Shown one piece after another: positions 4,501 to 64,000 of a stretch of 64,000 bases of DNA (its first letter is position 1; every line of letters starts with the position of its first letter). The stretch is taken from positions 174,694-238,693 of the forward strand of contig JAABRM010000001.1 in NCBI GenBank assembly GCA_011390955.1, written 5' to 3'. The notes beneath the pieces were generated by a model. It was not told where the DNA came from, searched no databases, and worked only from the letters and a program-made list of their open reading frames with translations. Position numbers and translations under genes: made by a program. Source of the DNA: Oscillatoriales cyanobacterium (lineage in GTDB: Bacteria > Cyanobacteriota > Cyanobacteriia > Cyanobacteriales > Laspinemataceae).

Positions 4501-7013
4501 GGATTTGCACTTAAGTATTCGATTTCCCCCGCTTGCACATAAAGATTTAAAGTTAAATCGTAATAGCGATCCCAGCGATCTGCTTCTAATAAATTTAAGC
4601 CAATATTTAAATAGTTCAAAGCCGCTTTATATGCCGTGGCTGACTTAGCCTTTTTAGCCGCCATGAGATTTAAAGAGGCTAACTCGTATTTTTCTAATGA
4701 ATTTTCTATTAAGTCAATGGCCAAATTTAGTTGATTGACTAAAATAAAAATCTGATTTTTTTGCGTCTCAGGAGGTAAATTTTCCAGCAGCAAACGACCG
4801 ATTTTTAAATGAGTGAGTTGTTTTTCCGATTCAGGAATCAGAGAATAAGCGGCTTGCTGTACTCGGTCATGTAAAAATTTGTAATCAATGTTTAAGCTAT
4901 TTTGGCGATCGCCCAGGATTGTTTCTCGATAATTTTCTGCCCACTGGTGCTCTGGAATTAACGGACTATCACTGTCTAAAAGCATGGGAATTTTATATGC
5001 ATCACTCAAAGGCAGGACTAGCCCCAACTCCAGAGCATTCCACAGCTTTAAAGCGGTTTCAGTGGTTGATTGCTCATTGACAATGGCCAGAATATCTAAA
5101 TTAAACTGGTTGCCAATACAAGCCGCAAACTTTAAAACTTTTTGCGTATCTTCGGGCAGTTTACTTAAGTTACGGGCAATCAGTTGGACGACATTATAAT
5201 CGGTAATGCCAATCCCTTGAATTTTCGCAATATCCCACTGCCATTTTGCTAAAGTTAAGTCATAATTTAATAATTTTTCTGTCGCGAGAGTTTTCAATAT
5301 TTGAGTTAAAAAGAAAGGATTTCCTTGGGTTTTATTCTCAATCAGTAATGCCAACTGACAAATATGGTGATTTTCTGGATCGGCCTTGAGGGTATCCGCA
5401 ATCAATTCGCGAATATGCTGATGAGATAATGGTTTTAATTCAATATTATGAATGAATGTTCCAGAAGCCTTGATGGTTTCCAAGGTTTGCATAGTTAAAT
5501 GCGTGGGACTGACTTCATTTTCTCGATAAGCCCCAATCACAAATAGATATTGATGGTCTGGGTCAGTCATCAAAAATTCGAGTAATTTTAAAGTAGCGGG
5601 GTCTGCCCATTGTAAATCATCTAAAAAAATCACCAAAGGATGTTCGGCTTGACAAAATACATTAATAAATTCTCGAAAAACCCGATGAAATCGATTTTGC
5701 GCTTCATAAATACCCAATTGAGGGACGGGAGGTTGTTCCCCTAAAATGAGTTCAAGTTCGGGAATGACATCAATAATGACTTGAGCATTTTGCTTGAGAC
5801 TACCTAATATTTTTTGTTGCCAATTCTTCAGATTTTGCGAAGTTTCCGTTAACAGTTGTCGAATTAATTGTTGAAAAGCTTGAATAATTGCTGCATAAGG
5901 AATGTTGCTCTCATATTGATCGAATTTACCGGCGATAAAATAGCCTCTGGTTTTGACGATGGGTTTATGAACTTCATAAACTACTGAGGTTTTACCGACC
6001 CCAGAATACCCACTCACAAGCATTATTTCGCTGGTCCCTTTGCTGACTCGTTCAAAGGCATCTAATAGAGTCTGAACTTCTGCTTCTCTTCCGTATAGTT
6101 TTTGCGGGATCAGGAGGACGCTGGCTCGATCGCGCATTCCTGGGGGGAAAGAATTAATCATCCCGGTAGTTTGTAACTCAGATAAACAAGTTTCTAAATC
6201 CGCTTGCAGTCCGGCTGCGGTTTGATATCTATCTTCTGCGGTTTTACTTAAAAGTTTCAGTATAATCGCCGCAGTAGTGGCATCAAGTTCGGGTCGATGT
6301 TGCTGTGGAGAAATCGCTTCAACGGCTAAATGGCAGTGAACCATTTCCATCGGATCCGTGGTGTTAAAAGGCAATTTACCTGTGAATAGTTGATAAAATG
6401 TCACCCCCAAAGAATAGAAATCCGTGCGATAATCTAAAAAACGATTCATTCTGCCCGTTTGTTCTGGGGACATATACGCCAGAGTGCCTTCTAATAAATT
6501 GCCATGACTCAAGTCAGTGTTTTCTCGATCTAGGCGTGAGGCTATACTAAAGTCTGTGAGTTTGACTTCTTTAGTGTCCGGGTTAATAATAATGTTAGAC
6601 GGGTTAATATCTTTGTGAATAATCCGGGCTTGATGTAGCTGTCCGACAATTTTAACCAGGGCGATCGCAATTTCTAACCCTTGCTGAATTGTCACCGATT
6701 GATTGGTCATCCATTCTTGCAAGGATTGTCCGCCAAAATCCTCTAAAATTAACGCATAACTATTTTGGTAGCGTTTCAGTTCATAGGCTTGAACAATTCC
6801 GGGAATATTCACGGAATGCATCAAGGTATATTCTTGTTTGATCCGGGTAATTTCTTCTAAAGTGGGATTGCTAGAGGCTAATGTTTTAATAATCACCGGG
6901 ATTTGACTGCTTTGTTCACTGCTTTGTTGAATTCCTCGATAAATGAGATTTTTTTCATTGGCGCTAATGGCCTCGGTAATCTGATATCCACTTAAAGAAA
7001 TCATTATCGTCAA
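1512..7013 (-). CDS. Multidomain signalling protein: N-terminal Hanks-type Ser/Thr kinase, AAA/P-loop NTPase, long helical/TPR-like region, GAF, then C-terminal histidine kinase (HisKA + HATPase_c)
   Basis: Kinase motifs [30 protein letters not shown]. Walker [11 protein letters not shown]-box [17 protein letters not shown]-lid G-boxes DNGPGIP and [11 protein letters not shown] at the C-terminus. Confidence 0.85.
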
Positions 7014-7226: not shown

Positions 7227-9089
7227 ATGGCAGAATTCCCTGATTTTAGCAAATACGGCTATCAAATAAAACGTGAATTGGGTCGCAATGTAGCCGGAGG
7301 ACGGCTGACCTACTTGGCTAACCGGATTTTACCCCAAAATTCATCAGCCAATAACGCCGAAAACTGGGTAGTGATTAAGCAATTTCAGTTTGCCACAACG
7401 AGCGCCAATTGGTCAGATTTTAAAGCCCACGATCGCGAAATTAAAGTTTTGCAAAGCCTCGATCGTCCAGGAATTCCTAAATATTTGGATTCTTTCGAGA
7501 CGCCCACGGGTTTTTGTATGGTGCAGGAGTATAAAGAAGCAAAATCTCTGGGAATATTACGCAGTTTTGAGCCAGAACAGATTAAACAAATTGCCCTAGA
7601 CTTGTTAGGAATTTTAGTTTATTTACAAAGTTTAAACCCGTTGGTGATTCATCGAGATATCAAACCAGAAAATATTTTAGTGGCGGAAAATTCCGCAGGT
7701 TCGCTGAAGGTTTATCTGGTTGATTTTGGCTTTGCTCAAATGGGCGGGGGCGAAGTGGCGATGAGCAGTATGGTGAAAGGCACTCTAGGGTTTATGGCAC
7801 CGGAACAGTTGTTTAATCGCAATCTGACTCCGGCATCGGATCTTTATGGTTTGGGGGCGTCTTTAATTTGTTTGCTGACGGCAACTAAATCGATGGAGGT
7901 GGGTAAGTTATTGGATGAAAACTATCATTTTGAATTTAGAGAATTGCTGCCTAAATTGAGTCGGCGCTGGATTTCTTGGCTGGAAAAAATGGTCGAGCCA
8001 GATCCGAAAAATCGCTATGCAAATGCGGCGGAAGCTTTGGCGGCATTGCAACCAATTTATGTTAACCGAACCCCAGAGGTTAAGCTGAGTCCGTCTCCCA
8101 TTGAGTTAGCCGCGTCCAAGGTTGGGGAAACGTTGCGGGTGCAGGTGCTAATAAAAAATTCTGTGCCAGAAACGTTGCTGACGGGTTGGTGGGAGGTGGC
8201 ACCGCATCCGAACGATCCCCCCCAGCCCCCCTTATTAAAGGGGGAGAACGATCCCCCCCAGCCCCCCTTATTAAGGGGGGAGAACGATCCCCCCCAGCCC
8301 CCCTTATTAAGGGGGGAGAACGATCCCCTCCAGCCCCCCTTATTAAGCCATTCTTGGATTAGTTTTAGTCCGTCAAGATTTGCAGACAATCGCGTGGTTT
8401 GTGAGATTTTGATTAATACGCGGAAGCTGAGAACGGGTCAAGTTTACGATCGCCAATTGTTGTTACATACGAATGGGGTGCCGGAAACTCAGACGGTCAG
8501 CTTGACGGTGCAGACGGCGCCGGTGCCGATCGCGGTGCGAAAATTGCCTCGTCGGTTTTTGGGATTACTGTTTTTGGTGGCTGCCGGTGGTTCGGTGGTG
8601 GCTTTGGAGTCCATGATGACTTTGGTGACGGTGGCGATCGCCGGTTTTGTGACTTGGGCGGGTCTTTCGCGGATTTTGGGCAGTCGAAACCATTGGCTAA
8701 AAGTGCTTGTAGCTTTTTTGACTACAATGGTAGTGGCGGGAATTGCCGGATTTGGGATTGGCGTTGTGCTTGGGGCGACGGCGACCGGGTTGTGGACAAC
8801 GGCGATCGCTGCTGCGGTGACGGTGGCAACAGGGGCAAGCTTGCTGGCAACTGCCACGGGAGTGAGAAAAAATTTCGGTACTGGGTGGGCGATCGCGCTT
8901 TGTTTGCTCACAGCAATTTGCGGCATTACTTTCGGTCTGGGTTTAAAATTACAATTATTAGCCTCTCCCTGGCTGTTAGCAATTGCTACCACTGCCCCGG
9001 TACTCGCTTTAGTCCTAATTTTGCCCGCCAGCGATCGGCGACGCCTTGCCAAATATCGGCAATCGGAGCAACATTTAATTGAATCTTAG
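7227..9089 (+). CDS. Membrane-anchored Hanks-type Ser/Thr protein kinase (N-terminal kinase domain, C-terminal multi-TM hydrophobic domain), paralog A
   Basis: Kinase motifs HRDIKPENILV, VDFGFAQ, GTLGFMAPEQ. The C-terminal ~200 aa is almost entirely hydrophobic helices. The central part contains the in-frame 36-bp tandem repeat. Confidence 0.85.
   Translation: MAEFPDFSKYGYQIKRELGRNVAGGRLTYLANRILPQNSSANNAENWVVIKQFQFATTSANWSDFKAHDREIKVLQSLDRPGIPKYLDSFETPTGFCMVQEYKEAKSLGILRSFEPEQIKQIALDLLGILVYLQSLNPLVIHRDIKPENILVAENSAGSLKVYLVDFGFAQMGGGEVAMSSMVKGTLGFMAPEQLFNRNLTPASDLYGLGASLICLLTATKSMEVGKLLDENYHFEFRELLPKLSRRWISWLEKMVEPDPKNRYANAAEALAALQPIYVNRTPEVKLSPSPIELAASKVGETLRVQVLIKNSVPETLLTGWWEVAPHPNDPPQPPLLKGENDPPQPPLLRGENDPPQPPLLRGENDPLQPPLLSHSWISFSPSRFADNRVVCEILINTRKLRTGQVYDRQLLLHTNGVPETQTVSLTVQTAPVPIAVRKLPRRFLGLLFLVAAGGSVVALESMMTLVTVAIAGFVTWAGLSRILGSRNHWLKVLVAFLTTMVVAGIAGFGIGVVLGATATGLWTTAIAAAVTVATGASLLATATGVRKNFGTGWAIALCLLTAICGITFGLGLKLQLLASPWLLAIATTAPVLALVLILPASDRRRLAKYRQSEQHLIES
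8210..8347 (+). repeat. In-frame 36-bp tandem repeat (3.8 copies), each unit carrying the palindrome CCCCCCTTATTAAGGGGGG
   Basis: Unit GAACGATCCCCCCCAGCCCCCCTTATTAAGGGGGGA starts at 8210, 8246, 8282 and 8318. It is translated as (ENDPPQPPLL[K/R]G)n. Paralog B (9295..11235) has no repeat at the equivalent site (APHPNDPKVKPPGHGW). Confidence 0.9.
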
Positions 9090-14973: not shown

Positions 14974-15510
14974 AAGATGAAGCTTTTGGCAAATCGGTCA
15001 ACTTATGATTATATCTTCTACGGGCTAATTTTTTTCAGAATTCCGATCGATTCCTGGTTGAGGTTCTGTTGGTGGCGATCGCCTGCACTGACCACCAAGG
15101 GTTAAAGGTGATTTGAATTGCCGGTCGATCGCTTCCCCAGAGGGCGATCGCCTCACATCCGCCAATTTGTCGCTTTAGTTAAGCTTTGCTGACAATCAAA
15201 GTCAGAAAAGCCTTAGAGAGCGATCGATTGTTGTTTGCTACCAGAACACATGACCCTCCTATGGATTAAAATAGCCCGATTGCAAGGATTAGGGTCGGGT
15301 TTTGTTTGGGCAAAACTACAACGATAGGTACAACCATAGGCGATCGCTGTCCCAGTTTTAACTCTAAAAAAATTAACCAATTTCACACCCAGAGAACAAA
15401 AAAATTTTATATAGTTGTGTTCTCTGTGTTCTCTGTGTCTCTGTGGTTTTGCATCCGAGCGGAAAATAGACACAAAAAGTAATTAAATTGCGCTTTTCTA
15501 CTTTGTCTGC

Positions 15511-17031
15511 TTACTTTGGCCGTTTCACCCCTCCTTTACGTTTCACTTGAAAGCCATACAAATAAATTTCCGGCATATTAATCAGTCCATCAAAACGACT
15601 TTCAACAATTCCCAGTTGGAGTAAATATTTCAATATTTCTTCAGAGTTATTAGCCGGTGGTTTTTTTTCAGGTCTTTCACTCCATCGAGTAGATTGTACC
15701 CGATCTAAAAATGTCTCCCTGGGCATCGGAGCATTCAAACCCACTAAGCTAGTCTTCAGCGATTCTAACCAGGGGTATTCCTCTTGTAATTCCCGAATGC
15801 GATCTTCGGAAGTATCCATTAAAGCCCCCTGTAAATCAGAAGGTTGCAACAGTTTTGTTTCCGGTAGGTTCTGTTCAGATTGTGCGGAAATTCTTCTGCT
15901 GGCTGCTAAGGCAAATAATTTTAGAAAAGAACGTGGGGCAATTCGACCACCAGCATCTTGAAGGTGATTAGGAATCCAACGATAGGTAATTCCTTTTTTA
16001 GGAGCATTTCCCATATACTTACCAATCATCATCTCGATCAGTTGTTCCAACAATTTTTCGTTGGATGTGGCAGTCCATCCCAAGCTATTTTTTTCTTCAA
16101 TAATTAAACCTGGAATGTTTTGTAAATATGCTCGCATTTCATTACTATAATTGGCGAGACGCTTGACTAAAAGTTGGTAAAGCCAGGAATGTTGCCACTC
16201 CAAGCGAATTTGATGACCCGATAGTTTGGAAGCATCGGGAAAATTCAAAAATTCTTCTCGAAATAGATCGGTTCGCAAAAATATTTTCGGGCAGATTCTC
16301 TCCCAACGGCGCGATCGATCCAGCCATAAGGCTAAAAGTTCACGAATTGGGCTGGCTAAGGCAGTGTAAGAACTGACTAACCGATCTAATTCGTCATAAT
16401 TAACAAATAACCAATTATCGGTTTCGATTAATTTTTCATCTAATTTATCTAATACATCATTAAATTTTTCTAGATGTTCATTCACCAAAGGCAGCCAATC
16501 GGATAAAAGGGACAATTTTTCTTTTAGTTTATTGGCAATAAAAGCGATCGCTGGATCGATTTCGGCAAAAATAAAATCTTTTAGCTTACAGTCTTCTTGC
16601 TGTAGGATAACACCTAACATTAACCCGATCCAAAAACTGCGCCATTCAATGTTTGTAGCATTTGGCATCAGAGACTCAACAATGTCTGGTGTCGGAAAGC
16701 GCTTTTCTGCCTTGCGAGTCCGCCCAAAGCCAGCTATCCATGTTGTTTGGCTTAAAGGAGGTAATGCTCTAATTTTCAAACTTTCCACCAAAGCTTCCCG
16801 TCCTGAAGGAATGGCCAGTAAACGGAATAATTCTGTTTTGCCGACGCCCCGACCTCCTTGGATTAATAATATATTAGGTTCTAGTGCCCTGCGATAATCG
16901 GCAATCGGCAAAAAGTTTTTTAAGAATTCCTCCTCATTATAGCTTTCACCTTCAGCGGCTGCCCCTCCAGGGGCAATTTGACTAATTAATTCCAGTAAAT
17001 TTTGTTGATTAAATTCACTCATGGTTTTCAT
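15511..17031 (-). CDS. P-loop NTPase of unknown family (Walker A GGRGVGKT near the N-terminus), third gene of a three-gene operon
   Basis: LIQGGRGVGKTELFRLL Walker A. Candidate Walker B LFVNYDELD. No match to a named family that I recognise. Its start overlaps the upstream gene's stop by 4 nt (ATGA). Confidence 0.6.
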   Translation of the reverse strand: MKTMSEFNQQNLLELISQIAPGGAAAEGESYNEEEFLKNFLPIADYRRALEPNILLIQGGRGVGKTELFRLLAIPSGREALVESLKIRALPPLSQTTWIAGFGRTRKAEKRFPTPDIVESLMPNATNIEWRSFWIGLMLGVILQQEDCKLKDFIFAEIDPAIAFIANKLKEKLSLLSDWLPLVNEHLEKFNDVLDKLDEKLIETDNWLFVNYDELDRLVSSYTALASPIRELLALWLDRSRRWERICPKIFLRTDLFREEFLNFPDASKLSGHQIRLEWQHSWLYQLLVKRLANYSNEMRAYLQNIPGLIIEEKNSLGWTATSNEKLLEQLIEMMIGKYMGNAPKKGITYRWIPNHLQDAGGRIAPRSFLKLFALAASRRISAQSEQNLPETKLLQPSDLQGALMDTSEDRIRELQEEYPWLESLKTSLVGLNAPMPRETFLDRVQSTRWSERPEKKPPANNSEEILKYLLQLGIVESRFDGLINMPEIYLYGFQVKRKGGVKRPK

Positions 17032-18404
17032 TGATTAACTTTGTTGAATTCACGGCCAAAAATTAAACATAATTTTTCGGCAATATTCTGATAATGAAAA
17101 TCAGTCATTATTCTGACAATATCTGACAGTCTATTTAACTCTTCTGGGCTTGAGTTGCGGCTAAATAGAGCAATGTCTCCTCGGAGGATATCCTGATATG
17201 GTACAACAAAAGGGTTAAATGGCGCATCGGGATCGTTGGCGTTAGGGACAGTTTCATTTTCAGAATAATAGTTATTTTGAAAAATGGTGTAGGCTTGTTC
17301 TCGAAATTCAGTTAACTCTTGTTCCCTGCCCGTTATGCCTAATCCTGGTGCCATTGAATGTACGAGAATCAACGGCAAACGGTCATCAACTCCAGGGCTG
17401 GCTAAATGGCGAATCACATGGGTTAAACCCGCCCAACTTTGACGGGATTTCGTGCTAAAAATAACTGCTGCGTGGGAAAGATTCGCGATCGCCAAGCCAC
17501 CAATATCGTGAAAACCAGCCCGTGCATCCATCAGAATAAAATCTAAAGGTTTGGCGGCACTTTCTAATTCTTTTAACATATCTCCCATTGTCCTGCCGAT
17601 CTCACCATCGACAAGGTTTTGAAAGTCCAACCGGGCTAATTTTTCTAAGTAATCGCGATCGACGGTTCCTGCGGGAAGTAATTGGATGGTTTCGCCCTCA
17701 TCTCCGAGCAAAGTGCGATCGCTAATATTGATCAATTGAGGGCGAAGTTTCCAATTCTTTCCTTGCACCTTTTTTTCCAGTAAATAATCAATCACCCCAA
17801 AATTATGAGAGTCATCAGGTAAAAAAATTGTGGCCAGACCTGGTGCTTCTAAATCCAGATCGACAATCGCCGATCGATGACCATTACGAGCTAAAGTCAA
17901 TGCGGTTGCAACCAGGGTACTTGTTCGCCCCACACCGCCTTTAAAAGAGAAAAAAGATATGATGGCAGGCTTATATTTTTGATAGACTAATTCTGGTTTC
18001 CAAGGTGGTTGACCGACGTTTTTATTTGTCCATGCTTGTTTGGCAATATGACGCTCAAGAATATACCAGCGAAGTGTCTCTGATTCATCATCCCAAGATG
18101 CCGGTTCCCTTTCGGCTTTAATCGTATCAATTAAAGCTTTATAAGCATCTTGTTCTCCGGTAGGCAACCAAATATCATTCCCATAATAAAGCCCAAGGTT
18201 TTGAGAAAGAAACCGATCCAGGTGAGTTGTATTAACGGCTTCTGGTGTTTGTCCTCCTGATAAATCAAGAAACAGGCGAATTTTGCCATTCACATCACGA
18301 ATAATGGTGACAGACTCAAGCTTAGGTACAAGTTCAGATAAAATACTTGGTTCCTGAAAGCATTCCCTTACTTTCTCTAATGTTTGACCAAAAGCGATCG
18401 TCAT
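17028..18404 (-). CDS. ParA/MinD-like ATPase with deviant Walker A KGGVGR (KGGVGR-motif variant AAA ATPase) and a ~150-aa N-terminal extension
   Basis: FFSFKGGVGRTSTLVATALTLA motif. ParA-like fold continues with DLDLEAPGL. The N-terminal 150 aa are unassigned. Confidence 0.7.
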   Translation of the reverse strand: MTIAFGQTLEKVRECFQEPSILSELVPKLESVTIIRDVNGKIRLFLDLSGGQTPEAVNTTHLDRFLSQNLGLYYGNDIWLPTGEQDAYKALIDTIKAEREPASWDDESETLRWYILERHIAKQAWTNKNVGQPPWKPELVYQKYKPAIISFFSFKGGVGRTSTLVATALTLARNGHRSAIVDLDLEAPGLATIFLPDDSHNFGVIDYLLEKKVQGKNWKLRPQLINISDRTLLGDEGETIQLLPAGTVDRDYLEKLARLDFQNLVDGEIGRTMGDMLKELESAAKPLDFILMDARAGFHDIGGLAIANLSHAAVIFSTKSRQSWAGLTHVIRHLASPGVDDRLPLILVHSMAPGLGITGREQELTEFREQAYTIFQNNYYSENETVPNANDPDAPFNPFVVPYQDILRGDIALFSRNSSPEELNRLSDIVRIMTDFHYQNIAEKLCLIFGREFNKVNQ

Positions 18405-18407
18405 GGA

Positions 18408-18854
18408 TTAAATATCCTTACTATAAATTGAGCCATTTAGCACTAAGTTTGGGATGATTTTCCGGTAAATTGCTTCGGCAGCTTCAACCGCTAACTTTGC
18501 TTGTTCTTCAGTCCAAAGCGGAGACTTGGCATACCTTCTTTCAGGGTGATCCTGCGCTAAAACAGTATCAATGATTGTTGCACATGGAAGTTGTCGATCT
18601 AAAATGGGATAGATAACCCGCAACCTTTCCATTGCCCTTCCCTCAAGTTCATTGAGGTCATGTCCATACTTCTTGACGGCCTTTTTATCATGCTTAAAAT
18701 ATTGCTCTACCAGCAGTTTAAAGGAACATTCTACCACATAGCCCGCGAGGTAAACGGCGTTGTCCCAGCGTTGGTTTTCTAAGAGAATTTTGGCATCAAT
18801 CAGATGCCTCCCGGCTGAGTTGGAATAGGACTCTTGCATTGTCTCAGTAATCAC
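18408..18854 (-). CDS. Small HEPN-like protein (first gene of the operon)
   Basis: 148 aa. Helix pattern AVYLAGYVVECSFKLLV...KKYGHDLNELEGRA resembles the minimal HEPN fold (pfam05168-like), but a canonical Rx4-6H motif is not obvious. 3-nt gap to the downstream ATPase gene. Confidence 0.45.
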   Translation of the reverse strand: MITETMQESYSNSAGRHLIDAKILLENQRWDNAVYLAGYVVECSFKLLVEQYFKHDKKAVKKYGHDLNELEGRAMERLRVIYPILDRQLPCATIIDTVLAQDHPERRYAKSPLWTEEQAKLAVEAAEAIYRKIIPNLVLNGSIYSKDI

Positions 18855-19107
18855 GACTATATTTATTTATATCATTAAGGACAAAATGATGGACTTAATT
18901 TTTAATTTTTATGCCAGAGTTAGGGCGATCGCGATTCTAAAGCCGCTTAATTTATTTCATCCGCTGGGTTAACGGGGGGCGATCGCGCAGAAAAAAACGC
19001 TTTCGACTCCCTGGCTGCCACCACACTGACAATTCGTGATATCCTATTTAAAGGTTAGCCTGCTGCCCAGAAAACGTTACACGATAACACTTAGGAAATT
19101 TGCAATT

Positions 19108-20214
19108 ATGTCACTACAAGAAGAAATTGATAAAGTCAGACAAGAAATTAAGACAGATAGTTACTCAATGTCTATTGGCGAGTTGATCAGCCTTTATGAA
19201 CAGGGTGAAATCGATATTCACCCTGATTTTCAAAGGTTTTTCCGTTGGTCAAATTATCAAAAATCAACTTTTATCGAATCAATTATTTTAGGCATCCCAA
19301 TTCCCCCAATTTTTGTCAGTCAAAGAGATGATGGTATTTGGGATGTAGTTGACGGGTTACAAAGACTCTCAACAATTTATGAATTTGTCGGCATTTTGAA
19401 CCAAAATGATACAGATGAATATCAACCTTTTGTTGCTTTAGAAGCAACCACATACTTACCTTCATTGAAAGGTAAAAAGTGGAACGATCCCAATGATGAA
19501 CACAACTCTTTAACTCAATTTCAACGCCTATTAATCAAGCGATCTAAAATCGCCGTGAATATCGTGGCAAAAGAAAGCGATAAAATGATTAAATATGAGC
19601 TATTTCAGCGACTCAATACAGGCGGTTCGATCGCTACACCCCAAGAAGTAAGAAATTGCATTGTTTTAATGTTGAATAAGGATTTATATAAATTGATGCG
19701 TTCATTGGCAGATAGAGAGTCTTTTAAAAACTGTATTTCTTTGAGCGATCGCCTGTATGAAGAACAGTATGATATGGAATTAGTATCGCGTTTTATTCTT
19801 CTATACGAGCGAGATAATGCAAGTATTCAAGAGTTAAAGGGTGATGTTAGCGAGTTTTTAACAGTTGGCATACGCCAAATGGCTCTTCAAGAAGATTTAG
19901 ACTACCGTCGTATAGAAAAAGCGTTTGATGTAACATTTAATATTCTTAATGAAGCAATGGGAGATAATAGCTTCAAGCGATATAGAGCGGAAGATGATAG
20001 ATTTCTTGGAGGGTTTCTATTATCTGTTTATGAAGTAGTAGCACTAGGCATTGGATTCCACCACCAAAATCCAATTTCAGCGGATAAAATACCCAATCAA
20101 ATTAAAACTATTTGGTCACATCAAATCTATAAAAAATGGTCGGGGGCTGGAGTAAATGCGGCAAGACGCTTACCCTATCTGATTCAGCTTGGTAGAGAGG
20201 TATTTGCTCCATGA
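19108..20214 (+). CDS. DUF262 (ParB-like/GmrS-like) domain protein
   Basis: DGLQRLSTI motif (the DGQQR signature of DUF262) near the N-terminus. The ATG at 19108 is preferred over the ORF-track start at 19036. The stop overlaps the next gene by 4 nt. Confidence 0.75.
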   Translation: MSLQEEIDKVRQEIKTDSYSMSIGELISLYEQGEIDIHPDFQRFFRWSNYQKSTFIESIILGIPIPPIFVSQRDDGIWDVVDGLQRLSTIYEFVGILNQNDTDEYQPFVALEATTYLPSLKGKKWNDPNDEHNSLTQFQRLLIKRSKIAVNIVAKESDKMIKYELFQRLNTGGSIATPQEVRNCIVLMLNKDLYKLMRSLADRESFKNCISLSDRLYEEQYDMELVSRFILLYERDNASIQELKGDVSEFLTVGIRQMALQEDLDYRRIEKAFDVTFNILNEAMGDNSFKRYRAEDDRFLGGFLLSVYEVVALGIGFHHQNPISADKIPNQIKTIWSHQIYKKWSGAGVNAARRLPYLIQLGREVFAP

Positions 20215-20864
20215 GCATCCGAACTCTTGAAAACTTAAGCGATAAACTAGCTCAAGACTTGGCTTGGCGAAAAAGAGAACTGGCCGAAATTAAATCTTTA
20301 GTAGAAGCGAAAAAAAATGTTTCCGACCAAAGACATAAGGTATTAGTGAGAAGTGCGGTATGTATCCTTTATTCCCATTGGGAAGGTTTCGTAAAATTAG
20401 CGGCTAACGCTTATGTAGAATATGTTCGGCTAAAAAGGCTTACCTACCAGGATATTTCTACTAATTTTTTGGCTTTGGCCATGAAAGAAAAACTGAAGGA
20501 GGCAAAAGAAACCAATAAACCATCTTTGTATATACCCGTTTGTCAGTTTTTGATTTCAGAATTAAATCAACGATGTATTTTACCTAAAGATCCAATATCT
20601 ACTGCATCGAATCTAAACTCAGAAATTTTGAAAGACATCGCGGATATTCTGGGAATAGACTTTTCCCCCTACTTGACGAAATCTAAGTTAATCGATGAAA
20701 AGCTGTTAAAAACCAGAAACGAAATTGCTCACGGGGAGTATTCGGGGGTTGATAGGAATGAGTATATAGAGTTACACCAAGAAATTATCAATCTGCTGGA
20801 TATATTTAAAACCCAAATAGAAAATGCGGCTAGTGAAGAAAGATTTAAGCGCAAGTCACCTTAA
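20211..20864 (+). CDS. HEPN-family putative nuclease (MAE_28990/MAE_18760-like)
   Basis: C-terminal R-x4-H motif (KTRNEIAHGEY) typical of HEPN RNase/nuclease domains. Translationally coupled to the DUF262 gene (ATGA overlap). Confidence 0.6.
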   Translation: MSIRTLENLSDKLAQDLAWRKRELAEIKSLVEAKKNVSDQRHKVLVRSAVCILYSHWEGFVKLAANAYVEYVRLKRLTYQDISTNFLALAMKEKLKEAKETNKPSLYIPVCQFLISELNQRCILPKDPISTASNLNSEILKDIADILGIDFSPYLTKSKLIDEKLLKTRNEIAHGEYSGVDRNEYIELHQEIINLLDIFKTQIENAASEERFKRKSP

Positions 20865-20945
20865 GTTTATCAATCTGTAAATATCAGCAGCCTAAAAAAA
20901 ATAAAGATTAAATCGGTATTATAAAGCAAAGAGGAAAGCAAAATC

Positions 20946-23600
20946 GTGTCCATTGTGTCTCAATTTGATATCGCCAACAAAATTAGCCGTGAGCCCTACT
21001 ACAGCACTCAGCTAGGTTCAGCCTACTTGGGCAATAGTTTAGAACTGATGGCAGAATTGCCCGATGAAAGTGTCGATTTAATTTGCACTTCTCCACCTTT
21101 CGCCCTGGTAAGAAAGAAAGAATACGGCAATGTAGATGCTCATCAATATGTTGAATGGTTCAAGACATTTGCCCGTGAATTCTATCGGATTCTTAAGCCT
21201 CAAGGGTCGCTATTTATCGATATTGGCGGCACTTGGCTGAAAGGTTTTCCGGTGCGATCGCTCTATCATTTTGAGTTAGTCATCGAGCTTTGTCAACCTA
21301 AATCAAAAGGCGGTTTAGGGTTTTTCCTGGCTCAAGAAATTTTCTGGTATAATCCCGCCAAACTTCCGACCCCAGCAGAATGGGTGACAGTGCGACGAGA
21401 GCGGGTGAAAGATGCTGTAAATACGGTTTGGTGGTTATCAAAAGATCCCCACCCTAAAGCCAATAATAAGCGAGTTTTACGCCCTTACAGTGAGGCGATG
21501 AAAAACCTGCTAAAAAATGGTTATGAGGCAAAACTACGCCCCTCTGGACATGATATTTCTACTAAGTTTCAGACCGATCGCGGTGGGGCGATTCCTCCCA
21601 ATATTATCGCCGATACTGCGTCTAGTGCAGGCACATTTATTGGTCAACCAGTATTGGGGGAATTTAATTGGATTTTAGACCATGATTTAGCCCAGCCCGT
21701 GAATGTGATTGCCGCTTCTAACACCGCATCTAATGACTACTATCAGCGACGCTGCAAGGAAGCCGGAATTAAACCTCATCCGGCGAGATTTCCCCAAGCA
21801 TTACCGGAATTTGCGATCGCACTTTGTACGGAACCCGGTGATTTAGTCCTCGATCCGTTTGCCGGTTCAAATATGACTGGACGAGTCGCCGAAACCCTCG
21901 ATCGCCGTTGGTTAGGCTTTGAATTAGATGAAAATTATATTAAAGCATCACAATTTAGATTTGAAGCCGATGCGCCCCTAGTAGTTAATCCATTAAAAGA
22001 CCGAAAATATCTTAAACAAAAAGCGCTAGATTTAGCCCCTGCCCCTGATTATCGAAAAAAATCATCTACCATAGATGATAAAAATAGTCATATTCAATTA
22101 GACTTATTTCAATCACAGAGTAACGATATGCCAGAACAAAAACTTAAATTCACCTATGGTCATCAGTTTGAACCCAAAACGATGCATTTACCTGAACTGA
22201 TGCAGCTATGTAAAGAAAATCAGCCCGATCGCCGGGTTCTACAGGATGAAATTGCCAAGCGCTACTATTCCAGCCACTCAAACCAAAATGATTTACAGAA
22301 AGGAGAAAATCGTAGCAAACTGGCAATGAATACATTTCTCTCTCTTCGTGCTTACAAGTTAGTTGAATCGATTAATGATGATGATTGGCAGTACCAAGTC
22401 ACAGATATTGCTAATCAAATCCTAGAACATCAAAGTGATGCTGATGAAGTCGCGACAATTTTTGCCCGTCACATCCTGACTAACTTAACCGGAATGTCTT
22501 TACTCAAAGCGGTGGAAGCGATTAATAGTAGAGGCGATCGACCCAAATTGGATTTAATTGGTTATGAACTGCAAGAAATGGGGTATTCTCTCTCTCCCAA
22601 CGCTATTTATGTGAGCACCATGCGACAATGGCTAGAAAAGGCAGGAGTATTTGAGAAAACCTACGAGATTAACTGGGATCGAGTCTATGATATCCTAGAA
22701 CTTGATAAAGATTATATTGACGAGATTTATACTCTGACCTCAGAGCAAAAGTATTTTCTTTTAGCCATGCTCCAGATGAGCATTACAGAACTCACTAAAT
22801 GGAATGACATTGCTAACTATGCGGTGAGTGTTTATAAAGTCCGCTTTCCCTCTAAGTCATTTGTTAAGGATATTATTCAACCTTTAGTAGAATTTGGGTT
22901 GATTTCCACGGAAAAAACTACCGGAGGACGTGGGGCTAAACCTAATCTGGTTAAACTGACGGAAAAAGCGCAACGTGAATTATTGTCTCAACTGTTAGAG
23001 GCGATCGCCGAACTGACAGAAATCTCCCAAACTGAGCTAAATCGAAGTTTTGAAGATGTGGTCAATGATTTAGATCATCCCGATAAACATATTAAAGGCA
23101 AAGCCCTGGAATTGTTAGCAATTTGGATGATTCGTTTGACCAGTCTTCGCTTCACAAAATGGCGGAAACGGGACTATGAAACTGGACAAGGGGAAGTTGA
23201 TGTTTTAGCGGCATCCGATCGCTTTGTCTATCACCGCTGGCAAATTCAGTGCAAAAATACCAAACGAGTTGATGTTGAAGTGTTAGCGAAAGAAGTCGGG
23301 ATGACTTTTGTCACTGGGGCTGATGTGGTAATGATTGTCACCACGGGTGAGTTTACCAGAGATGCTTTCCAATATGCTTATCGGATGATGGAAATATCTC
23401 GTTATTATATGGTGTTAATTCAAAAAGAGGATATTGAGGCGATTAAAGCCGATCGCACTAATATTATTAAGATTCTCGATCGCCGCGCAAGGCGTGTATT
23501 TGCTAAGAAAGAACTGGGGTTAACAGATGATGCGGTGGATGAGATAGAAAGTGAAGAAGATTCCCTGACAGAATTTGAGGGAACCTTGGCAGAAGAATAG
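20946..23600 (+). CDS. Fusion protein: beta-class amino-DNA methyltransferase (N4-C/N6-A) in the N-terminal half, Mrr-like PD-(D/E)xK restriction-endonuclease domain near the C-terminus
   Basis: Motif IV DLICTSPPF precedes motif I DPFAGSNMTG (beta-class order). C-terminal GEVDVLAASD...WQIQCKN matches the Mrr_cat D...(E/Q)xK core. GTG start with GAGGAAAG Shine-Dalgarno. Confidence 0.7.
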   Translation: MSIVSQFDIANKISREPYYSTQLGSAYLGNSLELMAELPDESVDLICTSPPFALVRKKEYGNVDAHQYVEWFKTFAREFYRILKPQGSLFIDIGGTWLKGFPVRSLYHFELVIELCQPKSKGGLGFFLAQEIFWYNPAKLPTPAEWVTVRRERVKDAVNTVWWLSKDPHPKANNKRVLRPYSEAMKNLLKNGYEAKLRPSGHDISTKFQTDRGGAIPPNIIADTASSAGTFIGQPVLGEFNWILDHDLAQPVNVIAASNTASNDYYQRRCKEAGIKPHPARFPQALPEFAIALCTEPGDLVLDPFAGSNMTGRVAETLDRRWLGFELDENYIKASQFRFEADAPLVVNPLKDRKYLKQKALDLAPAPDYRKKSSTIDDKNSHIQLDLFQSQSNDMPEQKLKFTYGHQFEPKTMHLPELMQLCKENQPDRRVLQDEIAKRYYSSHSNQNDLQKGENRSKLAMNTFLSLRAYKLVESINDDDWQYQVTDIANQILEHQSDADEVATIFARHILTNLTGMSLLKAVEAINSRGDRPKLDLIGYELQEMGYSLSPNAIYVSTMRQWLEKAGVFEKTYEINWDRVYDILELDKDYIDEIYTLTSEQKYFLLAMLQMSITELTKWNDIANYAVSVYKVRFPSKSFVKDIIQPLVEFGLISTEKTTGGRGAKPNLVKLTEKAQRELLSQLLEAIAELTEISQTELNRSFEDVVNDLDHPDKHIKGKALELLAIWMIRLTSLRFTKWRKRDYETGQGEVDVLAASDRFVYHRWQIQCKNTKRVDVEVLAKEVGMTFVTGADVVMIVTTGEFTRDAFQYAYRMMEISRYYMVLIQKEDIEAIKADRTNIIKILDRRARRVFAKKELGLTDDAVDEIESEEDSLTEFEGTLAEE

Positions 23601-23667
23601 AATAATGTTGGGCAGAAGGTGACGGAATTATCTCTGCCTGAATATTGACAAAACTCTGGGAGGATAA

Positions 23668-25029
23668 TTGGGTATTAGCCGTTTAGCCCATCCAAAGATA
23701 GACTACAATATGATTCAGCAGTGGTTTTTTGGGGATTGCAAAGTAGCAATGGATCAAGATTTTTTTACTCAAGGATTAGCCAAAGCTGGCAATAAAGACT
23801 ATCTAGGGGCGATCGCCTGTTTTGACCAAGCATTAGCCAGTAATCCCGATTTTACTCAAGGTTACTATCATCGCGGTTTAGCTAAGTTTGACTCAGGAGA
23901 TCCTCAAGGGGCGATCGCCGATTATACCCAAGCCTTAAACCTCAATTCTGAATATATCGAGGCTTATTTTGCCCGATGTTTAGGACACATTGCTTTAGGA
24001 GATTTGCCGCAAGCGCTGGCTGATATCGACCGGGCAATTGCCATCAATCCCAATTCTGCTAAAGCCTATAAATTGCGGGGAACCGTCTACCGAAAAATGG
24101 GCAATAATGAAGCAGCGATCGCCAATTTTAAACAAGGGGCAGAACTTTATATTCAGCAGAAAGACGCGGCAAATGCTCGCCAATGTCTCGATCAAATTAA
24201 AAACCTACAATGTCCAGCACCTGCCCCGGTTTTTCCCCAGAAAAAGCCCGTCATCTTGCCACAAATGTTATCGGAAAAACAGTTATATGCCCAATTGCTA
24301 GAAAAAGCCGAAACTGGTGACATTCAAGGAGCATTAGCGGGGTTAAATTGGGCAGTTGAAGTCGATCCAAAAGATGCCGCAGCTTATCTCTGTCGAGGGA
24401 TTGTGCGCTGTAAAGTGCAAAATTATCGAGAGGCGATCGCGGATTTCAATCAAGCCTTAAAATTAGCCCCAGAAGATATCACTATTTACCGCAATCGTGG
24501 CAAAGCCAGAGCCGCATTTGGTGACGCTCAAGGTGCGATCGCGGACTATAATAAAGTCCTGGAAAAAGACCCAAAAGATCCCTTAGCCTATATTGCCAGA
24601 GGCAATGCTTATCGGGAAACTAGCAAGTATGCTGAAGCCATGCAAGACTATAACCAAGCCATCAAAATTAACTCCCAAGAAGGGGACGCTTATTATAATC
24701 GGGCGATCGTCCACAGTCGCTTAGAAGAAATCTCAGCAGCCATCCAAGATTATCAAACTGCCGCCCAAATTTTTTGCGAAAAAGAAGACTGGGACAACTA
24801 CCAAAAAGCCCTAGATAGCCAGAAAAAAATTCAAGGAGCAACTCCCCCGGAAAAAGACCCGAATCTTTTCAAAAATCAACAAAAGCAACGGCTACTTTTA
24901 TTAGTCGGGGGCTATTGGGAAATTGCCGAACGTTTAATTCAGCAAGCGAAAGACAAATATCCAGGTAATTCAGAGCAATGGTACTGGGAAAAAGTGATTG
25001 CTGACTTAGAGCGCGATCGCGGTTTATAA
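23668..25029 (+). CDS. Tetratricopeptide-repeat (TPR) protein
   Basis: At least 8 tandem 34-aa TPR units (AxxxYxxALxxxP pattern, e.g. AIADYTQALNLNSEYIEAYFARCLGH). Confidence 0.85.
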   Translation: MGISRLAHPKIDYNMIQQWFFGDCKVAMDQDFFTQGLAKAGNKDYLGAIACFDQALASNPDFTQGYYHRGLAKFDSGDPQGAIADYTQALNLNSEYIEAYFARCLGHIALGDLPQALADIDRAIAINPNSAKAYKLRGTVYRKMGNNEAAIANFKQGAELYIQQKDAANARQCLDQIKNLQCPAPAPVFPQKKPVILPQMLSEKQLYAQLLEKAETGDIQGALAGLNWAVEVDPKDAAAYLCRGIVRCKVQNYREAIADFNQALKLAPEDITIYRNRGKARAAFGDAQGAIADYNKVLEKDPKDPLAYIARGNAYRETSKYAEAMQDYNQAIKINSQEGDAYYNRAIVHSRLEEISAAIQDYQTAAQIFCEKEDWDNYQKALDSQKKIQGATPPEKDPNLFKNQQKQRLLLLVGGYWEIAERLIQQAKDKYPGNSEQWYWEKVIADLERDRGL

Positions 25030-25066
25030 TCGATTATAATACCGTTTTTAATAAAAAATGCAGTAG

Positions 25067-25170
25067 TAGGGGCGCAATGCTTGCGCCCAAATTAAGCTCG
25101 GAATTGTAGCATTATAGTTCTTTCAATTGCGCTTCATAGCATTAAGGGCGCAAGCATTGCGCCCCTACAA
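25067..25170. repeat. GTAGGGGC...GCCCCTAC hairpin element (104 bp) between convergent genes
   Basis: GTAGGGGCGCAATGCTTGCGCCC...GGGCGCAAGCATTGCGCCCCTAC. Confidence 0.7.
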
Positions 25171-25239
25171 TTTTTTGTCAAATTAGTAGAAATTGGTTTA
25201 CAGCAATTTTCTATTGAATCTACCACAAATTTTTGTAGG

Positions 25240-25303
25240 GGCGAAGCATGACCGCAGACAAATTATTGCTGAAAATATTAATCTGAATCCGGTCATGCTT
25301 CGC
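25240..25303. repeat. Second hairpin element of the same family (GTAGGGGCGAAGCATGACC...GGTCATGCTTCGCCC)
   Basis: Perfect 16-bp inverted arms containing GAAGCATG/CATGCTTC. Confidence 0.65.
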
Positions 25304-25445
25304 CCGATCGCGGGTTATAATCGATTATAAATTGGTTTAAATCAGATTTTTTTGGGGAATTTTTTGGTAATTAGAGGCCAACCGCCGTTGACCCCTAATT
25401 ACCATTAATTACCCGGATTTGGCAGCGCCAATAATCAAGCAAAGT

Positions 25446-60710: not shown

Positions 60711-62099
60711 TCAGAAACCCGGTTTCTTGGTTTCTTTCACATATTCCCTAAATACTGGAGACAATTTAAACAAAATTTTATCCGACTTAAATTTTGTGAC
60801 TATATATCTGTATTGTAAAGATTGTAAACCCTTAACAAAATCCACTGAAGACAAAGCTAAATTTTCTTTTAATTCTTCTCTCGACATAGGTCGATCTAAT
60901 TTACTGAATTCTAAAATTATTTGCTGTTCAATTGGTGATACTCTGTTAAATAAATCGTTAAAACAAGATTGCATATTTTGAGTAATAACCAAGCTAGTTT
61001 CTGCCAAAGAATCTGCTCCATCACCATCATAAACATCTTGAATTAAACTGGCAATATCTTTTAAGTAAGTGGGATTACCTTGATAAAGCTGAATTAACTT
61101 TAACCAACTATCTTGATTATTTAAACCTGTATTGTCTAAAATATTAATGTTATCTAAACCTAATAATTCTAAAGCTTTAACGGGATATAGGCGATCGTCT
61201 AAACATTGCATATCAGCACATTTCTCTTGACTGATTAATATAATATTACTTTGATGCTCTGTTTCAGCGATCGCTGTGAAAAACTTTTGATAATCTTTAG
61301 ATTCAGCTTGATATTGTCCAGCAAATTGTCCCGGAGTAAAGATATGCTGCACATCATCAATAATGATTAAACATCGCTTTTCTTTTAATAAATTTAATAA
61401 CTGGCGAACCGGCGAATTTAAAAATTTTTCTGGAGTTTCAACTGTGGTTAATATTTCGGTGATAATTTGATTTAAGGAGGGAGTTAATTGAAGATTTTTC
61501 CAAATAATTACTTCAAAGCTATCTAAGTTTAAATCAATAAATCTTCTAACTAAAGCAGTTTTGCCAATTCCTGATAATCCTAGAACCGAGATTAAAGGAG
61601 TATTTTGATTAAATATCCAGTTAGAAAGGGTTTGTAATTCAGTTTCTCTGTTAGAAAAATTGATGACTTTAGGCGCAAAGGTTAAATCGCGATAAGCTGA
61701 TTTAACATTATTTTGTGTATTATTACTATCTTGAGGCGAATTTTGTGTATTGTTAACATATAAATTACCGTGAATATGATTAATGTTTTGCAACAAATAA
61801 TGATTGCCTAAATTAATTAATTTTTTTATTGATGTAGCAAAATTAGATTTTTTTACATCAACTTCTTGACCTAACTCTTTTAATTCTTGAGAGACAATAC
61901 CATATAATTCTCGACTAATTTTACCTATATATTCCTCATCATAATTTATACCTTCGGCAATATCAGAGTAGGTTTGATGCTGCAAAATCCCTAAAATAGC
62001 CCTTCTTTGTAAGTCATCAAGAGAGTTTCCTGTGTGCTTAGATACTAACTGATCCATCAATTGTAAAATTTCTGTAACAGACATAAAAGTTAGATTCAC
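60711..62099 (-). CDS. STAND/NB-ARC-like P-loop NTPase with an N-terminal helix-turn-helix domain
   Basis: Walker A VLGLSGIGKTALVRRF. Walker B CLIIIDDVQHI. N-terminal LDDLQRRAILGILQHQTYSDIAEGINYDEEYIGKISRELYGIV resembles a sigma-70 region-4/LuxR-type HTH. AT-rich relative to the rest of the window. Confidence 0.6.
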   Translation of the reverse strand: MNLTFMSVTEILQLMDQLVSKHTGNSLDDLQRRAILGILQHQTYSDIAEGINYDEEYIGKISRELYGIVSQELKELGQEVDVKKSNFATSIKKLINLGNHYLLQNINHIHGNLYVNNTQNSPQDSNNTQNNVKSAYRDLTFAPKVINFSNRETELQTLSNWIFNQNTPLISVLGLSGIGKTALVRRFIDLNLDSFEVIIWKNLQLTPSLNQIITEILTTVETPEKFLNSPVRQLLNLLKEKRCLIIIDDVQHIFTPGQFAGQYQAESKDYQKFFTAIAETEHQSNIILISQEKCADMQCLDDRLYPVKALELLGLDNINILDNTGLNNQDSWLKLIQLYQGNPTYLKDIASLIQDVYDGDGADSLAETSLVITQNMQSCFNDLFNRVSPIEQQIILEFSKLDRPMSREELKENLALSSVDFVKGLQSLQYRYIVTKFKSDKILFKLSPVFREYVKETKKPGF

Positions 62100-62298
62100 T
62101 AATGGTTTCAGCGATTATAGCATAGTTTTAAATTCAGAAAAAATCAGGAAATAACGGTTTTTAACGGTTTTGCTGTAATTTTTGTTTACAAAATAAGTCA
62201 GGAAATATAGGGAAATAACGGGTTTTTAAAGTAGCCGTGCTGTGAAATATTTGGCACAATCGAAGTTAAATAATAAATTTATAGACAGAGGTAAAAAA

Positions 62299-62511
62299 AT
62301 GGCAGAACCCATAACCGCAGCTACTTCAGTTGCCATCTTGGCAGGTTTAAAAGCAGCTTGTGCTGCAAAAGGTGTATCTGTTGGACTTGCTCCAATGGGT
62401 ACTGTCGTCACTGCATATTTCACTGGAGGTAGTACTGCTGCAATTAATGCCGCATACGCAACCGGAATTTATGGTTTTGGCGCATTAGTATCAGCATTTT
62501 TCGGCAAGTAG
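62299..62511 (+). CDS. Small Gly/Ala-rich hydrophobic peptide (70 aa), possibly bacteriocin-like or a small membrane protein
   Basis: GAGGT Shine-Dalgarno 7 nt upstream of the ATG at 62299. Sequence MAEPITAATSVAILAGLKAACAAKGVSVGLAPMGTVVTAYFTGGSTAAINAAYATGIYGFGALVSAFFGK contains several GxxxG/AxxxA motifs. Confidence 0.45.
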   Translation: MAEPITAATSVAILAGLKAACAAKGVSVGLAPMGTVVTAYFTGGSTAAINAAYATGIYGFGALVSAFFGK

Positions 62512-62595
62512 TTACATAAAGTGGGCAATGCTTTTTAATCTTTGATTCTCATTAACAAATTATCTACATTGCCCACCAGATAATTAATTTTTGTA

Positions 62596-62763
62596 GGGGC
62601 ATGACATTAATAACTTATGATACATACAGTTAACATAAAAAATGTCATGCCCCGATTTTATGATTAAAAAAATTAATTTAATTATTAATTATTGATTGGG
62701 TTGGGCATGGCATTTTTTAGGTTATTTATTAGTATCATAAATTAACGATGCCATGCCCCTACA
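62596..62763. repeat. 168-bp element bounded by GTAGGGGCATGACATT ... GATGCCATGCCCCTAC (same terminal family as the other GTAGGGGC hairpins)
   Basis: Two nested hairpins: GGGGCATGACATT...AATGTCATGCCCC and GGGCATGGCATT...GATGCCATGCCC. AT-rich interior. Lies between convergent genes. Confidence 0.65.
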
Positions 62764-62774
62764 TTTGTAATGTA

Positions 62775-63152
62775 TTATTTACCTACAGTTACAGCAATTT
62801 TATCTAACTGTAAACATTCAAGATTAAATTGTTCAAACAACTCAAAAAATAAATCAAAAGCTAACTTTTCATCTTCTACTTGAGACAAAATAATACTTTC
62901 CCAACCTTCAGAAGAATTAATTTGATATTTCCTTTGTATCCATTGTTGAAACTGAGCAAATTGTTTTTCTTCTTGTGTTAATTGTAAACCTAATTCACCC
63001 CTTGACATACCGTAACCCATTAATAACATTTTTAAACGGGTTAAAGACACTTTTCCTAGATACATTCCCGGACGTTGTTTAATTCTTGCTAATAAATTAT
63101 AGAGATATTCCTGACTATTTTTATTACCGTTAGTTGTGTTTAAATCTAACAT
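62775..63152 (-). CDS. Hypothetical protein (125 aa), candidate immunity-type partner of the upstream gene
   Basis: No recognisable motif. Arranged 20 nt downstream of 63172..63552 on the same strand. The call rests on position only. Confidence 0.35.
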   Translation of the reverse strand: MLDLNTTNGNKNSQEYLYNLLARIKQRPGMYLGKVSLTRLKMLLMGYGMSRGELGLQLTQEEKQFAQFQQWIQRKYQINSSEGWESIILSQVEDEKLAFDLFFELFEQFNLECLQLDKIAVTVGK

Positions 63153-63171
63153 AATTTACTCCTGAGTGTGA

Positions 63172-63552: not shown

Positions 63553-63587
63553 GAAAATATATTTTCATTTAATTTAACTATTAAATT

Positions 63588-63992: not shown

Positions 63993-64000
63993 ATATCTCC

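Follow-up and report, generated by a model that had tools for sequence, protein, structure and literature searches.

A probable cyanobacterial defence island in which a PD-T4-2-type DUF262-HEPN pair adjoins a separable, predicted restriction-modification fusion

When a methylase gene lies directly downstream of a DUF262-HEPN gene pair, do the three genes form one system or are they neighbours of independent function? The question is raised by positions 19108-23600 of a 64,000-nucleotide (nt) stretch from an Oscillatoriales cyanobacterium (contig JAABRM010000001.1, positions 174,694 to 238,693; hereafter the window), where three plus-strand open reading frames (ORFs) follow each other: gene A codes for a DUF262 protein, gene B for a HEPN protein, and gene C for an 884-amino-acid (aa) protein in which a DNA methyltransferase (MTase) is fused to an Mrr-like nuclease domain. 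A preliminary description of this DNA took the three for a split GmrSD-like system in which the HEPN protein replaces the usual nuclease and the methylase protects the cell. Our comparative analysis favours a different answer. We consider it likely that the locus is a defence island of a Planktothricoides-like cyanobacterium with three separable modules, namely a two-gene pair of the PD-T4-2 type, an autonomous Type II restriction-modification (R-M) fusion and a candidate PDC-M28 module divergent from the pair. All three belong to already known kinds, and the novelty of this ordinary cyanobacterial defence island is low.

The three plus-strand ORFs are present at the coordinates given earlier, and their motifs and domain matches are as described, which confirms the earlier observation at this level; none of the domain matches of the three proteins is near chance level. 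Gene A (19108..20214, plus strand) has its true start at the ATG at 19108 and codes for 368 aa, as do its homologs, comprising a DUF262/ParB-like NTPase domain and a C-terminal region covered by the NsnA model. It had been described as a DUF262 gene with a DGQQR-type motif, and this is borne out by the match to the Pfam GmrSD_N/DUF262 profile (PF03235, 6.5e-25) and by the DGLQR at aa 82-86 (19351-19365). The two other characteristic motifs of DUF262 are also present, QRxxxW as FQRFFRW at aa 41-47 (19228-19248) and FxxxN as FQRLN at aa 166-170 (19603-19617). Two PADLOC models match gene A better than the Pfam profile does: NsnA (4.7e-61, aa 11-297) and PD-T4-2_A (6.7e-31). The extent of the NsnA match implies that gene A has the same pair of ParB-DUF262 and ParBDB domains. 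A sequence search of the PDB recovered no relatives of the gene A protein.

Gene B (20211..20864, plus strand; 217 aa) codes for a HEPN protein of the MAE_28990/RiboL-PSP families and is a predicted RNase effector. Its identification as a HEPN protein with a canonical RNEIAH motif holds: it matches HEPN_MAE_28990 (PF18737) over its full length at 4.5e-56 and HEPN_RiboL-PSP (PF18735) at 1e-41, and in an alignment of 27 sequences with 29-49% identity to the query the residues R169, N170 and H174 of the RNEIAH (Rx4H) motif (aa 169-174; 20715-20732) are invariant. The same alignment has two further invariant blocks, YxHWEG (here YSHWEG, 20370-20387) and SNL (20607-20615). The family is large and uniform: 671 relatives, mostly cyanobacterial and with 65-96% identity, were recovered from a large protein collection, and a profile search yielded 2293 clusters at 50% identity, nearly all of them with a length of 210-230 aa. 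An AF2 model built from a shallow alignment is all-alpha with seven helices (predicted local distance difference test score, pLDDT, of 71), and a profile search of the PDB detected no relative of gene B. The HEPN assignment thus rests on the Pfam profile and the motif.

Together, as judged from profile models and published family calls, genes A and B are a PD-T4-2-type architecture, a combination of a known kind. PD-T4-2, an anti-T4 system from E. coli ECOR65, is given as 'DUF262, HEPN' in Table S1 of Vassallo et al. (2022), where HHpred assigns subunit A to DUF262 and DndB and subunit B to HEPN_RiboL-PSP (97.8%) and HEPN_MAE_28990 (96.9%). By inference from GmrSD, BrxU, SspE and NsnA, protein A would bind DNA and use NTP hydrolysis as a switch that responds to an infection cue. 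From the biology of HEPN domains, protein B would be an Rx4H RNase held inactive; once released or activated by A, it would cut RNA and stop translation. These roles of sensor and effector, and an RNA target, form with the recognition site of the R-M enzyme the part of our reading that we infer; the identities of the domains, the strictness of the pairing with its overlap and the independence of the R-M gene are shown by the data.

The pairing of the two genes is strict. The TGA of gene A overlaps the ATG of gene B in an ATGA (20211..20214, plus strand), as had been noted from the start, and this implies translational coupling. We fetched 80 genome loci encoding HEPN relatives at 36-80% identity from cyanobacteria, Desulfobacterales, Planctomycetes, Bacillota and Chloroflexi. 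A DUF262 match ends at the start of the HEPN gene in all 80 (four of these matches are partial). Among metagenome loci whose sequence extends far enough upstream, 55 of 58 have a DUF262 gene immediately before that for HEPN; the co-occurrence for which the preliminary description had called is therefore found almost without exception. The stop-start overlap is itself conserved in 75 of 78 related loci (4 nt in 59 and 1 nt in 16). When we inspected the two nearest genes on each side of the pair, they turned out to be housekeeping genes of mixed kinds, for example sulfate permeases, Na/Ca exchangers, kinases, Uma2 and a few BrxC, and no recurrent third partner was found among them. These comparative data indicate that the pair is an obligate, translationally coupled unit that does not need a methylase.

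The pair also occurs outside the cyanobacteria. It is carried by a Col-type mobilizable plasmid of Enterobacter cloacae (CP056768.1, 5724 bp), where it spans the origin (approximately 4665-5724 plus 1-717); apart from the pair, the annotation of the plasmid comprises two genes for mobilisation and a RelE/ParE toxin-antitoxin pair. Compared with the cyanobacterial proteins, the plasmid-encoded DUF262 protein is 47% identical and the HEPN protein only 30%; across distant relatives the sensor is consistently better conserved than the effector. When E. coli genomes were searched by blastn for the Enterobacter DUF262 gene, no match came up. A search of a phage collection returned one marginal match (E 1e-3) and no more, which gives no evidence for a phage-borne pair.

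Gene C is independent of this pair. The proposal that its 884-aa product is the self-protecting methylase of the pair failed on comparison with the related loci: when gene C was used as a query in three segments (tblastn, E <= 1e-5), none of the 80 loci had a match within 10 kb of the pair. Other MTases and restriction endonucleases (REases), searched as a panel, fared little better, with occurrences within 10 kb of the pair in 2 of 73 cyanobacterial loci, both 3-5 kb away and neither adjacent. More direct evidence comes from a sister lineage represented by three independent assemblies (L085-L087; HEPN 94% identical), in which the pair occupies the same chromosomal site, bounded by genes for DAHP synthase and, on the other side, for TPR, SelO, kinase and RecQ proteins. 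Here, the counterpart of positions 21051-23521 of the window is missing, with the join at a GATG microhomology (L085, position 8840), and remnants of gene C are left on both sides, approximately 105 nt of its 5' end and 79 nt of its 3' end, which identify the event as a deletion. Both genes of the pair are intact in these genomes (368 and 217 aa). Conversely, the fusion is found apart from the pair: a version 81% identical to gene C stands alone in Microcystis between the genes for cyanophycin synthetase and a sulfate permease, and in both Argonema and Oscillatoriales USR001 it is on another contig than the pair. The guanine-plus-cytosine (GC) content differs as well: the pair has 0.36, and the halves of gene C have 0.45 and 0.40.

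Several observations nevertheless weigh against the reading of the locus as separable modules with a PD-T4-2-type pair. With respect to the pair itself, the PADLOC model PD-T4-2_B has no match to gene B at E <= 0.1; from this it follows that the rules of PADLOC probably would not call the system, and that the two B subunits are only distant relatives at the level of the family. Likewise, a Foldseek search of the PDB with the model of gene B had no match at E < 0.1 (1jog and 1ylm, both HEPN proteins, came up only at E ~1.2), and a review describes the mechanism of PD-T4-2 as largely uncharacterised. With respect to gene C, the gap between the HEPN gene and the R-M gene is just 81 nt and a promoter/terminator scan found no terminator-like site in it, and in Planktothricoides the three-gene layout is kept, with 96% nucleotide identity over positions 15233-25361 of the window. 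Finally, outside the cyanobacterial clade the pair often tightly adjoins R-M or MTase genes unrelated to gene C. Given this adjacency elsewhere, the gap without a terminator and the layout in Planktothricoides, some functional cross-talk between the pair and an R-M gene is conceivable.

The strongest form of such a link would be that from which the preliminary description set out, namely one integrated three-gene system in which DUF262 and HEPN act as a split, modification-dependent enzyme of the GmrSD kind and the adjacent methylase spares the host. We regard this as very improbable. The close same-strand spacing and the Planktothricoides layout speak for it; so does PD-lambda-5, which establishes that a ParB-HEPN protein can act together with a methyltransferase, and one metagenomic locus with an N6_N4 MTase gene on either side of the pair. 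On the other hand, the MTase::Mrr gene is missing from every one of the 80 related loci and occurs elsewhere alone, as in Microcystis, or as split M and R genes, as in Ancylothrix (see below). Its natural deletion spared both genes of the pair in three independent assemblies, and genomes of this type suggest that the loss of positions 20946-23600 is tolerated with the defence afforded by the pair unchanged. PD-T4-2 is active with two genes only: the cloned 1.8-kb fragment (338141-339964) holds two ORFs and no methylase, and it defends a heterologous host, and ECOR65 without PD-T4-2 shows greatly increased plaquing of T4 (Vassallo et al., 2022). The proposed logic is itself problematic, as a modification-dependent enzyme needs no protective methylase, and HEPN domains are established as RNases, whose action cannot be blocked by DNA methylation. 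A methylase acting on DNA would not be expected to protect the cell against the RNase effector.

If gene C does not serve the pair, what does it do? The simplest reading of its sequence and structural model is an autonomous fused Type II (IIC-like) R-M enzyme, for which DNA cleavage, blocked by its own methylation, is predicted. Gene C (20946..23600, plus strand) matches N6_N4_Mtase (2.6e-42, aa 43-336) and Mrr_cat (2.8e-9, aa 744-816) in Pfam, in keeping with its earlier description as an MTase fused to an Mrr-like domain. The M half (20946..21980) matches the PADLOC model MTase_II at 5.5e-116, and the N-terminal 340 aa of gene C align with M.PvuII, an N4-cytosine MTase (PDB 1BOO), over nearly the whole length (E 4.9e-97). 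Its SPPF motif (aa 49-52; 21090-21101) precedes the DPFAGSN that represents FxGxG (aa 303-309; 21852-21872), which is the order of the beta class; a beta-class and possibly N4-cytosine MTase, as had been proposed, is thus well founded. A disordered linker (21981..22148; residues 1-33 of the structural model, pLDDT ~27-30) forms the apparent seam of the M and R halves. It is followed by a helical and winged-helix region (22149..23045), a putative DNA-recognition module, and by the Mrr-type PD-(D/E)xK nuclease (23046..23600), with the putative catalytic residues E722 (in the block 23100-23120), D752 (in the block 23190-23210) and Q768-x-K770 (23241-23255). The AlphaFold model of residues 371-884 (mean pLDDT 76.6) comprises the linker, the helical/winged-helix region and a terminal alpha-beta-beta-beta-alpha-beta unit, and on this model the PD-(D/E)xK core of the C-terminal domain, a point on which the preliminary description had staked its reading, is confirmed.

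A Foldseek search of the PDB with this C-terminal model gave only whole-length FokI as a significant match (E 2.3e-5), and the best matches for the domain are AF1548 and R.BspD6I. The putative catalytic residues E722, D752, Q768 and K770 are invariant in 17 close homologs. In Ancylothrix the two halves are separate genes: a gap of 20 nt separates a 358-aa MTase gene from the 498-aa Mrr_cat gene downstream of it, whose identity to the C-terminal half of gene C is 65-67%, and the break between the two falls in the region of the linker. It is this occurrence in stand-alone and split forms, together with an M.PvuII-like M half and a FokI-like R half, that points to an autonomous fused Type II R-M enzyme. 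The M half would then protect the host DNA from its own R half and not from the HEPN pair.

An alternative for the C-terminal half is that it is a modification-dependent module in the manner of Mrr, MspJI or AspBHI, or an inactive DNA-binding module, which would turn the protein into a Type IV-like enzyme or into a methylase that carries a reader domain. The name of the matching Pfam family, Mrr_cat, invites this idea, but it is hardly credible. In the split as well as the fused form, an M.PvuII-like methylase comes first and R second, the hallmark of a classical R-M system; a nuclease directed against the product of the methylase fused to it would be lethal; the structural matches lead to FokI over the whole length, with AF1548 and R.BspD6I as the best for the domain; and conservation extends to the catalytic residues.

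The predicted R-M enzyme resembles FokI and N.BspD6I in that the PD-(D/E)xK cleavage domain is C-terminal and comes after winged-helix domains for recognition. It differs from the M.PvuII system and from FokI in that a single polypeptide of 884 aa combines M with R and carries the nuclease at its C-terminal end. The enzyme R.PvuII is small and unrelated, and the characterised fused R-M enzymes of the MmeI, Eco57I and BcgI types have an N-terminal nuclease and a gamma-class MTase. A literature search for a characterised M.PvuII-like::REase fusion found none. Among homologs of the gene C protein (P0193-P0240, approximately 800-830 aa), many non-cyanobacterial proteins have an M.PvuII-like half with around 55% identity and C-terminal halves, some with Mrr_cat and some without, that are unrelated to that of gene C (<=20%). 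Their sequences suggest that gene C belongs to a wider family in which MTases are fused to exchangeable C-terminal halves, perhaps nuclease or recognition modules. The sequence CAGCTG is absent from the window, with ~8 expected; as 22 other hexamer palindromes are absent too, this is uninformative as to the recognition site of the R-M enzyme. Gene C represents a predicted fused R-M enzyme that is widespread in cyanobacteria and combines an N4-cytosine MTase with a FokI-like nuclease half; it may add a further obstacle to the genetic manipulation of these organisms.

The residual link of the pair to R-M systems is best seen outside the cyanobacterial clade, where about 10 of ~52 loci have an R-M neighbour as against 0-2 of 73 within it. 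These neighbours are diverse: on a Corynebacterium plasmid a PaeR7I-type REase and an N6 MTase lie beside the pair; plasmids of Bacillus and Psychrobacter have BsuBI/PstI-type enzymes in this position; an Eco57I-like R-M enzyme and an MTase lie 8 nt upstream of the pair in a Bacillota metagenome-assembled genome (MAG), an MmeI-like R-M enzyme 59 nt upstream in a Chloroflexi MAG (loci L079 and L080); and a protein with a ResIII domain is encoded upstream of it in L138. In the metagenomic locus L153 (5821-9784), the pair is placed between two N6_N4 MTase genes on the same strand, the downstream one with a RAMA domain, and there is no obvious REase; among the arrangements seen, this one alone might give the 'R' role to the pair itself. 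Such adjacency fits both the clustering of genes in defence islands and the idea of a 'multi-pronged' defence by R-M plus HEPN (Anantharaman et al., 2013). It leaves a modest probability of cross-talk and does not thereby make the methylase a component of the system.

Two ways in which cross-talk might operate deserve consideration. One is a loose, two-layered coupling of R-M with abortive infection (Abi) as in PrrC-EcoprrI: the pair would monitor the R-M enzyme or the state of the DNA and fire its RNase when a phage beats restriction, with exchangeable modules cooperating wherever they are adjacent. The recurrence of the pair beside non-homologous R-M genes of the PaeR7I, BsuBI/PstI, Eco57I and MmeI types and the ResIII protein, some of them same-strand neighbours 8-59 nt away, is what such a coupling predicts; the same logic has been proposed for R-M-linked HEPN genes (Anantharaman et al., 2013), and PD-lambda-5 is described as a compact RM+Abi system. 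We nonetheless hold it to be unlikely, since approximately 80% of the examined loci have no R-M neighbour, a level expected from defence-island clustering, since the pair outlasts the loss of the R-M gene, and since PD-T4-2 defends alone in a heterologous host. The other, to which we give a still slightly smaller chance, is that the pair serves unrelated R-M systems as a portable 'guard' module: docked onto one of them, it would read the state of the enzyme or the methylation and fire its RNase upon failure; here, it would guard an uncharacterised fused class that is M.PvuII-like and FokI-like. We retain the reading in which the PD-T4-2-type pair and the R-M fusion are separable modules of one island.

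The third module of this island is no part of the pair and lies just upstream of it in divergent orientation, at 15511..18854 on the minus strand. It codes for a HEPN protein of 148 aa, a ParA-like ATPase with the motif KGGVGR and a P-loop ATPase of the Sll1717 type, and all three PADLOC models of PDC-M28 match within this one operon (M28A 1.2e-12, M28B 4.2e-64, M28C 1.1e-81), as do NCBIfam NF047398 and NF047389. Resemblance of this candidate PDC-M28 module to the HEPN-ParA/Soj 'toxin-antitoxin' dyad proposed in 2013 may be noted (Anantharaman et al., 2013). In two Microcoleus-type loci (L005 and L006) the PDC-M28 trio is found 4-7 kb from a DUF262-HEPN pair. In the sister lineage, the counterpart of positions 15456-18938 of the window (L085, 3988-6500) has in place of PDC-M28 a gene for an AAA_15/AAA_21 ATPase and a gene of 136 aa. 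The replacement of PDC-M28 and the deletion of the R-M fusion in the same lineage indicate that the stretch from the DAHP synthase gene to the TPR and SelO genes is a variable hot spot for defence genes.

In the window as a whole, 23 of the 64 palindromes of 6 bp are absent, and the HIP1 octamer GCGATCGC occurs 107 times with 0.6 expected; such extreme avoidance of palindromes and abundance of HIP1 are typical of R-M-rich cyanobacteria. An Rfam scan of the whole window gave no matches, and a tRNA scan with ARAGORN gave nothing relevant apart from a doubtful tRNA-Ile(aat) at 8190-8267 on the minus strand. Base composition departs at two places, an AT-rich right end (61001-64000, ~30% GC) and a GC-rich segment at 8001-9000 (54% GC).

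Nothing in the locus alters current concepts. What it adds is a cyanobacterial clade, spread over many genera at 65-96% identity, to the PD-T4-2 type, whose mechanism remains unsolved. The invariant residues offer targets for mutagenesis in both proteins: RN..H, YxHWEG and SNL in the HEPN protein, and QRxxxW, DGxQR and FxxxN in the DUF262 protein.

How, then, does the locus compare with known systems? With GmrSD, BrxU and SspE it shares an N-terminal DUF262 NTPase domain with the QRxxxW, DGxQR and FxxxN motifs, which probably has the same role as a DNA-sensing switch. It differs from them in its effector, which is a separate HEPN protein and not a DUF1524 His-Me nuclease. As this effector is a separate predicted HEPN RNase, the expected target is RNA rather than modified DNA. 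Membership in GmrSD was rejected because DUF1524 is absent, though a DUF262 domain with DGLQR is present; no match to DUF1524 was found at E <= 0.1 in genes A, B and C or in the upstream genes. The earlier suggestion that a HEPN protein takes the place of the DUF1524 nuclease of GmrSD is hence a fair description as far as the three proteins are concerned; its novelty does not stand, given that PD-T4-2 has the same arrangement. Reviews count PD-T4-2, Menshen and Dazbog among the DUF262 systems without DUF1524. With Menshen the locus shares an A protein for which NsnA is the best PADLOC model. Menshen (NsnABC) was rejected as a classification because both the NsnB ABC ATPase and the NsnC inPIN-effector are absent, the genes downstream of gene A being those for the HEPN protein and then for the MTase::nuclease fusion.

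PD-lambda-5, given as 'ParB/HEPN, methyltransferase' (Vassallo et al., 2022), and PrrC-EcoprrI resemble the locus in their layered defence, with DNA-modification genes next to the gene for a HEPN RNase, which in PD-lambda-5 also has a ParB domain. In those systems the linkage to R-M is intrinsic, whereas the R-M gene of this locus is dispensable and missing from nearly all relatives. Closer is the operon type of the MAE_28990 HEPN family (PF18737), already described in 2013 (Anantharaman et al., 2013): gene B is a full-length member of this family and the published layout fits the locus, with the difference that the association with a methylase is not general and is seen here and in a minority of loci only. 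The pair finally resembles PD-T4-2 in being a two-gene operon of a DUF262/ParB-like gene followed by a small RiboL-PSP/MAE_28990 HEPN gene, with no DUF1524, ATPase or methylase; the genes are likewise adjacent, co-oriented and paired without a third obligatory gene, and both B subunits fall to the same two HEPN families. The differences are that the E. coli operon has 1540 nt and the one described here 1757 nt, and that the host here is a cyanobacterium.

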